52,911 bases of DNA, taken from assembly GCA_041486265.1 (NCBI GenBank), contig JBGPLF010000001.1, positions 1 through 52,911 on the forward strand, in the 5' to 3' direction. The stretch comes from a bacterium. GTDB lineage: Bacteria; Sysuimicrobiota; Sysuimicrobiia; Sysuimicrobiales; Humicultoraceae. Positions 12,155-14,528 of the stretch are shown one piece after another. A program made the translations under genes and the position numbers. The notes under the pieces were generated by a model. That model was not told the DNA's origin and did no database searches. It worked only from the letters and a program-made list of their open reading frames with translations. The first letter of the stretch is position 1, and every line of letters starts with the position of its first letter.

Positions 12155-12906
12155 AGGCGCTGCTGGCCTGGGCGCCCGAACCGTTTCCCGAGATCCGTCC
12201 CGGAGACGATCTTGCGGCCGCCATTGCTGCTGCTCTCCGCGGCGCGGGATTGCTTCCCGAGCCCGGCGACGTCGTCGTCGTGGCGCACAAGGTCGTCTCC
12301 AAGGCTGAGGGCAGCGTCGTGGATCTCCGCGAGGTCACGCCCAGTCCGGCCGCGACCGCGCTGGCCGTCGAAGCGCAGAAGGATCCACGGATGGTGGAGG
12401 TCATCCTCCGCGAATCTCGGACCATCCGCCGCGTGCGCCCCGGGCTGATCATCGCCGAGCACCGGCTGGGGTTCGTCTGCGCGAACGCCGGGGTGGACCA
12501 CTCCAACGTCGGCCTCGGGGATGAGGTGATCGCGCTGCTGCCCAGGGATCCCGACGCCTCGGCCGAGCGTCTCCGGTCGCGGCTTCTGGAAGTCTTCGGT
12601 GTGGATGTCGCCGTGATCATCAACGACAGCCACGGCCGGCCGTTCCGCCACGGCACGACCGGTGCGGCGATCGGGGCTGCAGGCCTGCGGGTGCTGAAGT
12701 CCTACGTTGGCGAAGAGGATCGGTATGGCTACGTGCTCCGGGTATCGGTCGAAGCGGTCGCGGATGAACTGGCGGCGATGGCGAATCTCCTGCAGGGGCA
12801 GGCGGCCGAAGGCACGCCGCTGGTGTTGATCCGCGGGGCGGAGTATGCGGGCGAAGAAAAGGCCGCCGAGCTGCTGCGGCCTGAAGGGGAAGATTTGTTC
12901 AGGTAA
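12151..12906 (+). CDS. cofE: coenzyme F420-0:L-glutamate ligase (CofE/FbiB N-domain type)
   Basis: ATGA overlap with npdG. ...VVVAHKVVSKAEG...IIAEHRLGFVCANAGVDHSNV...VIINDSHGRPFRHGTTGAAIG... is the CofE pattern. The upstream part of ORF 11908 is rejected. Confidence 0.85.
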   Translation: MKALLAWAPEPFPEIRPGDDLAAAIAAALRGAGLLPEPGDVVVVAHKVVSKAEGSVVDLREVTPSPAATALAVEAQKDPRMVEVILRESRTIRRVRPGLIIAEHRLGFVCANAGVDHSNVGLGDEVIALLPRDPDASAERLRSRLLEVFGVDVAVIINDSHGRPFRHGTTGAAIGAAGLRVLKSYVGEEDRYGYVLRVSVEAVADELAAMANLLQGQAAEGTPLVLIRGAEYAGEEKAAELLRPEGEDLFR

Positions 12907-13205
12907 CCCCGGGCATGTGTGGTGTTTGCAGCGGCTTCCTGCTATGGTGACGGCGGTGAACTAACATGGCCAGGACTCACCGCGGCGGTCGACCACTCCC
13001 AAGAGAGGCGCGCTCGGTCCAAGAGTCGAAGCGGCAGGGTCTGGAGGACAAATGGCCTTCCGCCGATCAGATTGATCTCTCAGCTATGGTCGACCTCTTC
13101 GCGGGACCCGCCGACCTGTCAACACATCACGACCACTATCTGGCCGCCGGACGACCCCGCCCTTTCCGCAGGAGGAGATGAAGCCATGACCATCGAGGTG
13201 ATCAC

Positions 13206-14528
13206 ATGATCGTCATTGCGACCGGCGTTTCCGGCAGCGGCAAACTGAGTGAAGCCGGCGGCGGGCTCGGCTACCTCGTCCGGCTGATTGAAGAAGGGAC
13301 GCAGCGGATTGCGCAGGAGCAGCGCGAGGGCCGCTGGGCCTCGCCCATCAAGCGGCTGCGCTATATTGACATGGGCCGCCTGATGCTCGACCGCGCGCGC
13401 GACCTGGGGCTGGTCGTTCGTACCGAGACGATCCTCGACATGGCGCCCGAGGCGCTGCAGGAACTCCGCGCCATCGCCTTCACCGAGGTCGCCAACGATC
13501 CGGACCTGTGGGATCCTGACCTCTGCACGATCCTGGTGACCCATGCGTGCTTCTGGTGGAAGGGACACCTGATCCCTGGGCTCGATACACACTACCTCAA
13601 GCTCCTCTTCGACGAAACGCGCCGGCGCATGCCCCCGCCGGATCAGGCGGCGGTTCAGGAAACGCTCCCCGGGCTGCGCCTGGCGCCGCCGGTACGGCCC
13701 GAGGGGATCTTCTACGCCACGATCGTCGACAGCGTCTATCAGATCCAGCGGAGGCTGAGCGAGACGGAGCAGTGGAGGGCAAAGCTCACTCCTGCCGACG
13801 TCATCGCCTGGCAGGAGCAGGAAGTGTTCGTCTCCAAGATGTTCGCTGCCTATGAGCGTGTGCCGCACTACCTGATCGCGCATGACGAACCGGTCAGGAC
13901 CCTCTTCGACCTCATCTGCTTTAAAAGGTCCCGCATCTACGTAGGCTATCCCATTACCAATCTGCGCCGTGAAGGGCAGGCGCGGTTGATCGAGATGGCG
14001 CGCGAGTTCGGCCAGCGGCTGCGCGACCACTTCGTGGTCTTTGACCCCTTGTCGGTCAAGGACGAGGAAGCGGCCGCGTTTGCGAAGATTGGAGAAGCGG
14101 AGTTCGAGCAGCAGTTCTCGGCTGAGCAGCGGGCGGAGATCCTGGCCTGGGCCGGATCACTGGAGCAGGTGCGATCGTGGGCGCAGAGCCTGGACGACCA
14201 CACGCGGCTACAGCTCGGCCGCGCGACCGTCATCCGCGACCTGCGCCTGATCGATCAGTCGGACATGAACGTCGTCTTCTATCCCACGAGCCAGATGTCG
14301 TTCGGCGTCCTCTCCGAGATGATCCACGCGCGCACCACCGGCAAGAAAGTGTACATCCTCTACCCGTTCAAGAGTATCTCGCCGTTCCTCGAATTTTACG
14401 CAACGGGTGTCCACACGCCCAAGGCCGACGAGCCCGATCCGCAGACAGATTACGAGGTCGAGGCGTTTATGCACCGGGCGGCCGGAGAGGTCGAGGCCGC
14501 GCTCTTGGGGGAGTCCGGCCCGGCCTAG
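13206..14528 (+). CDS. fusion protein: archaeal-type adenylate-kinase-like P-loop domain + DNPH1/nucleoside 2-deoxyribosyltransferase-like domain
   Basis: 440 aa. The Walker A motif is VIATGVSGSGK (13224-13244). ...VTHACFWWKGHLIPGLD... and ...IVDSVYQIQRRL...AWQEQEVFVSKMFA... resemble AdkA-type kinases. The C-terminal RIYVGYPIT...DLRLIDQSDMNVVFYPTSQMSFGVLSEMIHARTTGKKVYILYP resembles the NDT/DNPH1 Rossmann-like fold, with a conserved Glu at 14316-14318. Confidence 0.6.
   Translation: MIVIATGVSGSGKLSEAGGGLGYLVRLIEEGTQRIAQEQREGRWASPIKRLRYIDMGRLMLDRARDLGLVVRTETILDMAPEALQELRAIAFTEVANDPDLWDPDLCTILVTHACFWWKGHLIPGLDTHYLKLLFDETRRRMPPPDQAAVQETLPGLRLAPPVRPEGIFYATIVDSVYQIQRRLSETEQWRAKLTPADVIAWQEQEVFVSKMFAAYERVPHYLIAHDEPVRTLFDLICFKRSRIYVGYPITNLRREGQARLIEMAREFGQRLRDHFVVFDPLSVKDEEAAAFAKIGEAEFEQQFSAEQRAEILAWAGSLEQVRSWAQSLDDHTRLQLGRATVIRDLRLIDQSDMNVVFYPTSQMSFGVLSEMIHARTTGKKVYILYPFKSISPFLEFYATGVHTPKADEPDPQTDYEVEAFMHRAAGEVEAALLGESGPA

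Follow-up and report, generated by a model that had tools for sequence, protein, structure and literature searches.

A family of prokaryotic proteins that joins an archaeal adenylate kinase-like domain to a DNPH1-like domain, predicted to cleave nucleoside monophosphates

In mammals, the cleavage of deoxynucleotides by DNPH1-type enzymes has been studied in depth, as a means of nucleotide-pool sanitation and as a PARP-inhibitor target, and to our knowledge almost no prokaryotic counterpart has been described. Here we analyzed a bacterial gene that joins a DNPH1-like domain to a kinase-like domain in a single polypeptide. The gene occupies positions 13206..14528 on the forward strand of a 52,911-nucleotide stretch of DNA (the window; contig JBGPLF010000001.1) and encodes 440 amino acids beginning with MIVIATGVSGSGKLSE, with its TAG stop codon at 14526-14528. 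Judging from alignments, the C-terminal domain has the catalytic and phosphate-binding machinery of DNPH1, combined with a different base pocket. We favor, as probable but far from certain, the reading that the protein is an N-glycosidase of (deoxy)nucleoside 5'-monophosphates in which the kinase-derived domain binds a nucleotide and probably regulates, and that the protein serves a housekeeping role.

The catalytic triad of DNPH1 consists of Y24, D80 and E104, of which E104 carries the covalent deoxyribose-phosphate intermediate; the phosphate is held by S98 and S128', E55 activates the water, and the base is recognized by R30 and H56 (PMC10603095). In MilB, a related CMP N-glycosidase, Y24 is replaced by Phe, which allows ribose to be accepted, and the F17Y exchange moves the preference of that enzyme to deoxyribose (PMC10603095). 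On the kinase side, the active site of the archaeal adenylate kinase (AK) OdinAK comprises K13, R51, H85, R124, R134 and R137, and the His is typical of archaeal AKs (PMC9635829).

The C-terminal domain (aa 238-404; 13917..14417; this and all other features of the gene lie on the forward strand) adopts the fold of DNPH1/Rcl (2'-deoxynucleoside 5'-phosphate N-hydrolase, also 5-hydroxymethyl-dUMP N-hydrolase; PDB 8rpt, 4p5e, 9da1) and of the nucleoside 2-deoxyribosyltransferases (NDTs), as indicated by PF05014, profile searches, hhalign and Foldseek. On the single sequence, PF05014 (Nuc_deoxyrib_tr) matched aa 333-386 with an E-value of 0.002, and all 19 family C-domains tested were matched by the same model, the best at 1.2e-6. 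Since a profile of these 19 C-domains was too weak for a search of the PDB, we used a 46-sequence profile of the core motifs, whose top 19 matches were all MilB, NDT or DNPH1/Rcl enzymes (E 0.0045-0.9). The best was MilB itself (0.0045), followed by the engineered phosphodeoxyribosyltransferase 4hx9 (0.02) and DNPH1/Rcl (0.021). Direct alignment of the C-domain profile to human DNPH1 with hhalign gave an E-value of 1.6e-4 over 106 columns; the numbering of the human sequence used here fits all residues named in PMC10603095 as well as the PDB alignment fragments.

These alignments place the catalytic residues of DNPH1 in the fusion protein. The HMM alignment to the PDB chains of DNPH1 paired R344-D345 with Q79-D80, S365 with S98 and E371 with E104, and hhalign paired Y245 with Y24 and D280 with E55. 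The fusion protein thus shares with DNPH1 the Tyr/Asp/Glu triad and the Ser for the phosphate, placed six residues ahead of the Glu, and has an acidic residue where DNPH1 has E55. Among 122 full-length representatives of the family, Y245 was invariant, D345 and E371 were each kept in 120 and S365 in 107, and R344, K380 and the S392-P-F motif were near-invariant. A sequence-only reading of the locus had placed the Glu of SFGVLSE at the catalytic position, and this holds: E371 aligns with DNPH1 E104, with the MilB Glu and with NDT E98. The residues are distributed over a beta1 motif, Y245-V-G-Y-P-I-T251 (13938..13958), the nearly invariant catalytic core R344-D345 ... Q351-S-D353 ... S365-F-G-V-L-S-E371 (14235..14318; aligned to DNPH1, MilB and NDT) and the S392-P-F motif (14379..14387; S in 101, P in 116 and F in 114 of the 122). 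S392, aligned by no tool, is a candidate equivalent of DNPH1 S128', through which the partner subunit contacts the phosphate. The base-recognition residues of DNPH1 are not kept, with T251 at the position of R30 and no His at that of H56 in the hhalign alignment; the preferred base should therefore differ from that of DNPH1.

The NDTs (PDB 1f8x, 7m5h) share the superfamily and the nucleophilic Glu with the fusion protein, but the NDT residue D92, which contacts the 5'-OH, corresponds to Ser365, as in the 5'-phosphate enzymes DNPH1 and MilB; this position holds Gly in the engineered 4hx9. An assignment to NDT proper was rejected on account of Ser365. MilB and BlsM act on CMP and hydroxymethyl-CMP as N-glycosidases in the pathways to nucleoside antibiotics (PDB 4jen, 4jem, 4ohr), and MilB has the Asp...Ser-x-Gly...Glu motif in common with the fusion family. 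In contrast to the fusion family, MilB has Phe at the position of the invariant Tyr, the determinant of ribose versus deoxyribose (PMC10603095), uses R23 for the phosphate, has no kinase-like domain and belongs to an antibiotic cluster, whereas the fusion gene is not in such a cluster. The invariant Tyr245 argues for a 2'-deoxy substrate.

We propose that the protein is a cytoplasmic two-domain enzyme whose C-domain acts as a DNPH1/Rcl-type N-glycosidase. The most likely reaction would convert a 2'-deoxynucleoside 5'-monophosphate to the free base and deoxyribose 5-phosphate by double displacement through a covalent Glu371-sugar intermediate, with Tyr245, Asp345 and Glu371 in the roles of the catalytic triad. 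The 5'-phosphate of the substrate would be bound by S365, and perhaps also by S392 of a partner subunit. D345 would protonate the leaving base while E371 attacks C1' to form the covalent sugar-phosphate ester, from which a water activated by D280 would free deoxyribose 5-phosphate. This product may pass to DeoC, which is encoded in the same genome. A nucleotide bound by the kinase-derived domain, which packs on the C-domain, would adjust activity or assembly, and the whole protein would serve as a housekeeping enzyme that turns over or cleanses the pool of (deoxy)nucleotides. Of this picture, the homology, fold, residue matches, distribution and context are direct observations, and the activity, the preference for deoxy substrates, the regulation and the oligomer are predictions. 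Its housekeeping character is indicated by the canonical Adk and DeoC encoded in the genome, by its presence as a single copy in 31 of 33 genomes of its own bacterial family, by the translational coupling to tmk in Anaerolineae (described below) and by one relative fused to a NUDIX domain.

The N-terminal domain (aa 1-237; 13206..13916) has the fold of the archaeal trimeric AKs, according to profile searches of the PDB and Foldseek. The single sequence gave only faint signals: NCBIfam PRK04040 (archaeal adenylate kinase) matched aa 50-132 with an E-value of 1e-3, at 16.3-18.7 bits against an equivalog cut-off of 155 bits, and AAA_17 reached 0.01. A profile of 49 diverse family members detected the archaeal AKs 6ln3, 6pjw, 1ki9, 1nks and 3h86 with E-values from 4e-16 (6ln3) to 7e-13 over profile positions 3-140. 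The homology and fold that aa 1-237 share with archaeal trimeric AdkA (PDB 6ln3, 6pjw, 1ki9, 1nks, 7owe) extend to the P-loop glycines, the "TH" His and the PD and acidic beta-strand motifs.

The two domains were also recovered in the structure model. An AlphaFold2 model built from a 66-sequence alignment had a mean predicted local distance difference test score (pLDDT) of 90 and a predicted template modeling score (pTM) of 0.89, a value that suggests a fixed orientation of the two domains relative to each other; pLDDT fell below 50 only at aa 150-163. In a Foldseek search of the model against the PDB, archaeal AKs ranked first (E 1e-8, TM(target) 0.72-0.81), followed by human DNPH1 (8rpt, TM(target) 0.63) and the bacterial NDTs 9ezk and 1f8x with E-values of 1e-3 and a probability of 1.0; TM(target) was about 0.6 for the DNPH1/NDT matches. 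The AdkA-like and DNPH1/NDT-like domain calls of the sequence-only reading are thus upheld by family profiles, hhalign and Foldseek. The BFVD library of viral structures returned only single-domain NDT or kinase matches and two poor two-domain alignments. The latter, A0A8D9FPZ4 and A0A8S5VIY1, are uncharacterized phage proteins of ~300-350 aa with 300-420 columns aligned to the whole model at TM 0.22-0.35, and they could be phage kinase and NDT two-domain proteins in another domain arrangement.

Several active-site features of the kinases are altered in the N-domain. Compared with AdkA, the family has no AMP-site Arg, retains the LID arginines only in part and has a variable Walker Lys that is not followed by Ser or Thr. 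The P-loop, T6-G-V-S-G-S-G-K13 in the protein of the window (13221..13244; read from the sequence), is atypical in that Leu follows the Lys. Across the 122 representatives the glycines of the loop are conserved, position 13 is Arg in 50 and Lys in 42 (K or R in ~75%), position 12 is Gly in 56, Asp in 16 and Glu in 10, and the residue after position 13 is never Ser or Thr. His113 (13542..13544) aligns with the active-site His of archaeal AKs (OdinAK H85; ..ntHacFrW.. against ..DTHA..) and is kept in 105 of the 122. The Asp of the AK "DTH" motif is replaced by N, S, A or V, and the arginines of the AMP-site "DRD..R" motif (OdinAK R51) correspond to E74 and the invariant L77. Of the LID arginines, R183 is present in 58% of the family and R or K191 in 48%, and W190 stands where AKs carry Arg. 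Within the clade of the window, K13 is Lys in 50 of 54 members, and R182/R183 and R191 are also kept. The N-domain core (aa 50-135) is as conserved in this clade as the catalytic core of the C-domain (0.90 each), indicating that the N-domain is clearly functional. The same genome encodes a canonical bacterial Adk elsewhere, so the fusion protein is not the adenylate kinase of the cell. On these alignments, the N-domain is most likely a nucleotide-binding module, regulatory and/or oligomerizing, and at most a weak, atypical kinase.

The combination of a catalytic N-glycosidase domain with a regulatory domain that senses nucleotides has a conceptual parallel in the allosteric NMP nucleosidases, the AMP nucleosidase Amn of E. 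coli and PpnN of the LOG family. The analogy is one of concept only, in that the catalytic and regulatory folds of these enzymes are unrelated to those of the fusion family, whose own regulation we infer. As a tentative extension, which we regard as rather doubtful, the family may form a hitherto unrecognized class of dNMP N-glycosidases in prokaryotes, whose activity a pseudo-adenylate-kinase domain would gate by sensing the adenylate or dNTP status of the cell. In that case, DNPH1-type pool sanitation would have an equivalent in bacteria and archaea that is allosterically controlled from within the same protein; the enzyme might assemble as a trimer-of-dimers hexamer and would supply DeoC with deoxyribose 5-phosphate.

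Several observations weigh against the N-glycosidase reading with a regulatory kinase-derived domain. The fusion protein scored 16.1-19 bits on PF05014, under the gathering cut-off of 28.8, with ~18-20% identity to DNPH1 in the structural alignment, and the single PDB sequence matches of the C-domain are weak (E 0.005-0.02). The absence of the DNPH1 base residues could mean that the substrate is something other than a free dNMP, and a helix-hairpin-helix insert in one relative hints at nucleic-acid binding in at least some members. The equal constraint on the N-domain, together with the retained K13, R182/R183 and R191, fits a working kinase as well as a sensor. In addition, a plain DNPH1 function would be redundant in this organism, whose genome encodes a 330-aa protein that joins a CYTH domain (PF01928, E 9e-10) to a canonical DNPH1-like domain (contig C224, L104:922-1914, forward strand). 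Its DNPH1-like domain reaches 35.8 bits on PF05014, which exceeds the cut-off, and its motifs YFCGAIRGGR, LTAHV and PSLGVGIELA include equivalents of R30 and H56; the presence of both enzymes suggests that they have different substrates. This makes two different proteins in the genome in which a nucleotide glycosidase is fused to a domain that handles phosphates.

The sequence-only reading had proposed that one polypeptide combines nucleotide phosphorylation with N-glycosidic bond cleavage or exchange. In such a bifunctional enzyme, an active atypical (deoxy)nucleoside or NMP kinase would pass its product or substrate to the DNPH1-like domain, for example by converting a nucleoside and ATP to an NMP that is then split into base and (d)R5P, or by sorting dNMPs between phosphorylation and destruction. 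The conserved P-loop glycines and archaeal-AK His speak for this, as do the residues and constraint kept in the clade of the window, the coupling to tmk in Anaerolineae and the fixed packing of the domains in the model. An imperfect P-loop, moreover, does not exclude catalysis, as the active methanococcal AKs 6pjw and 1ki9 also have no Walker Lys (GVPGVGGTT). However, the AMP-site arginines and the "DTH" Asp are replaced, the LID arginines are kept only in part, about a quarter of the members have neither Lys nor Arg at position 13, and an acidic residue occupies position 12 in 26 of the 122. Of the earlier proposal, the glycosidase half is backed by a glycosidase-type active site, and the kinase half is made uncertain by the missing AMP-site Arg and the non-invariant Walker Lys; the accompanying expectation that the Walker Lys and the SE-motif Glu are conserved among homologs was borne out for the Glu and, for the Lys, within the clade of the window but not across the family. 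We consider a bifunctional enzyme unlikely, but a serious competitor of the favored reading.

Two further readings concern the C-domain and are, in our judgment, improbable. In the first, the Glu371-deoxyribosyl-5-phosphate would be resolved by an incoming base, and the protein would be a naturally occurring phosphodeoxyribosyltransferase for the salvage or exchange of a (modified) base, working at the level of dNMPs. In favor of this, the chemistry of the covalent intermediate is common to the NDTs, and 4hx9, an engineered phosphodeoxyribosyltransferase, ranks among the best matches in the PDB; in addition, other residues stand at the base-recognition positions of DNPH1, and the C-domain is covered by a helical insert specific to the family. 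Against transfer, D280 aligns with DNPH1 E55, the proposed water activator, and no base-salvage genes recur beside the fusion gene; sequence by itself does not distinguish transfer from hydrolysis. In the second reading, to which we assign similarly little weight, the target would be nicotinamide or nicotinic acid mononucleotide (NMN/NaMN), a modified nucleotide or the terminal nucleotide of DNA or RNA instead of free dNMPs. This is consistent with the loss of R30 and H56, with the helix-hairpin-helix DNA-binding motif in the C-domain of one relative, with one archaeal locus that has an NMN adenylyltransferase gene directly upstream and another with endonuclease III, and with the canonical DNPH1-like gene already present in the genome. 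However, each supporting locus or variant was seen in a single lineage, S365 and the SPF motif suit a mononucleotide that carries a 5'-phosphate, and Tyr245 argues against ribonucleotides such as NMN (PMC10603095).

The fusion had been described as an orphan in the sequence-only reading, which does not hold. An exhaustive search of representative proteins returned 448 clusters (50% identity) at E <= 1e-3 and 199 at E <= 1e-10, and the matches are mostly 330-380 aa in length and span both domains. A pattern scan over one genome per species found the family in at least 170 genomes, a lower bound in that the pattern excludes the window's own clade. Among the matches listed, the bacterial carriers include Anaerolineae and Dehalococcoidia (Chloroflexota), Planctomycetota, Caldisericota, Acidobacteriota and Bacteroidota/Ignavibacteriota, the archaeal carriers include Brockarchaeota, Nitrososphaeria, Geothermarchaeota, Micrarchaeota and Hermodarchaeota, and nearly all of these genomes are metagenome-assembled genomes (MAGs). 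The family tree follows the major lineages fairly well, and the clade of the window is joined to it by a long stem branch. Among 94 genomes of the phylum-level group, the 31 of 33 in the window's own family that have the gene have it in single copy, and the other families do not have it, apart from one weak partial match. No Pfam or NCBIfam family above threshold covers the fusion architecture, and our literature searches found no paper on it, in agreement with the earlier statement that no characterized protein has this architecture. It is therefore a large unnamed two-domain family with neither a Pfam model nor a function described in the literature searched.

Several members depart from the common architecture. 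Proteins of ~600 aa (P0101, P0103, P0112, P0122, P0208 and P0132) have two tandem kinase-like domains ahead of the DNPH1-like domain, P0153 carries the C-terminal NUDIX domain (E 1e-12), and P0179 carries the helix-hairpin-helix (HHH_3, E 9e-14) inside the variable helical region of its C-domain. This region, by which the family differs from DNPH1 along with the archaeal-AK-like domain, is an insert of about 20-50 aa that varies in length across the family and is expanded in the clade of the window, where it comprises about aa 286-333 (14061..14204; DSSP helices in the model and gap pattern); it corresponds to the ~55-aa helical insert noticed earlier. A second insert, at aa 136-168 of the kinase-like domain (13611..13709), is recognized by alignment gaps and low pLDDT: these positions are gapped in 113-118 of the 122 family members, and the poorly modeled aa 150-163 lie within it. 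With a mean column conservation of 0.84 inside the clade, the insert that had been noted at about aa 135-165 is real, clade-specific and conserved. Relative to the rest of the family, the extra conserved segments of the clade are aa 16-22, 35-49, 136-168, part of 293-333, 405-413 and the C-terminal tail.

To characterize the genomic neighborhood, we called and clustered ORFs in 85 loci and ran Pfam on 117 representatives of the neighbor clusters. No Pfam family occurred in more than two of these 117, so no neighbor recurs across lineages and a conserved gene partner was rejected; the neighboring genes are ordinary housekeeping genes. The lineage-specific upstream genes, namely tmk, DedA/VTT membrane proteins and NagB (opposite strand), are unrelated to one another. 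In the Anaerolineae loci (L001-L004, L006-L015), the start of the fusion gene overlaps the tmk stop in an ATGA-type coupling, and the order is tmk, fusion gene, darA, such that the family member splits the Bacillus-type pair of tmk and darA, the c-di-AMP receptor gene. Further along these loci are a zinc-ribbon gene, remA, gmk and a Memo-like gene. A link to F420 was likewise rejected: cofE and Fno, the F420-dependent NADP oxidoreductase gene, adjoin the fusion gene only within the window's bacterial family, which we judged to be local synteny.

NDT- and TIR-like N-glycosidases and kinases occur in defense systems, and the sequence-only reading had considered a defense-like function, in which the protein would be an effector that destroys the nucleotide pool on infection. 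Two acidobacterial loci do adjoin an Mrr-like gene. However, the gene is a single-copy core gene in its own family and absent from the sister families, its synteny is stable and its neighbors are housekeeping genes, with no Pfam family in more than two of the 117 neighbor clusters. PADLOC gave no match for five family members, searches for phage and plasmid homologs found none, and the tree largely follows the major lineages, so that a defense or nucleotide-depletion effector is very improbable. This pattern of distribution and context fits a stand-alone housekeeping enzyme.

Within the window, the fusion ORF is a real gene, as ~60 homologs (435-449 aa) with 70-92% identity share its length and start. 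They come mostly from MAGs labelled Armatimonadota by NCBI, and some have been automatically named "adenylate kinase" by JGI. On the 5' side lie a gene for an F420-dependent NADP oxidoreductase-like protein and CofE, and on the 3' side a convergent SIMPL gene followed by a pyridoxal phosphate-dependent enzyme, confirming the F420 and SIMPL neighbors that had been reported. A relative with 72% identity retains this synteny, in the order M16-M16-CofE-(MR_MLE)-fusion gene-SIMPL. The TAG stop of the fusion gene on the forward strand and the SIMPL stop on the reverse strand overlap in the palindrome CTAG (14525-14528), and therefore no space is left for a terminator between the two genes.

The gene had also been taken to be monocistronic behind a 300-bp leader. 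In 14 related genomes of the same family, the upstream cofE or MR_MLE (enolase-superfamily) gene ends -4 to 30 nt from the fusion gene and the leader is absent, indicating that the 300 bp without genes that separate cofE from the fusion gene in the window (12907..13205, assigned to neither strand) are private to this genome and outside the conserved unit. No homology to this spacer was found in these 14 genomes, Rfam gave no match, either over the whole window at the gathering threshold or over 12880-13240 at E<=5, and the spacer shows no site resembling a promoter or a terminator. An RNA element or conserved leader was rejected on the Rfam negatives and the lack of homology in the 14 relatives. 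The spacer may be what is left of an MR_MLE gene that was lost, or the trace of a rearrangement.

In this family, the complete set of DNPH1 catalytic residues occurs in a new architecture, with hundreds of clusters across many bacterial and archaeal phyla. To it the gene of the window adds one more, somewhat divergent, member whose clade has several conserved inserts, and its added value is modest. Knowledge of its function would correct the automatic label "adenylate kinase", would reveal the role of a kinase-derived domain fused to a glycosidase, and would define a missing step of deoxynucleotide turnover or salvage in the organisms that carry it.

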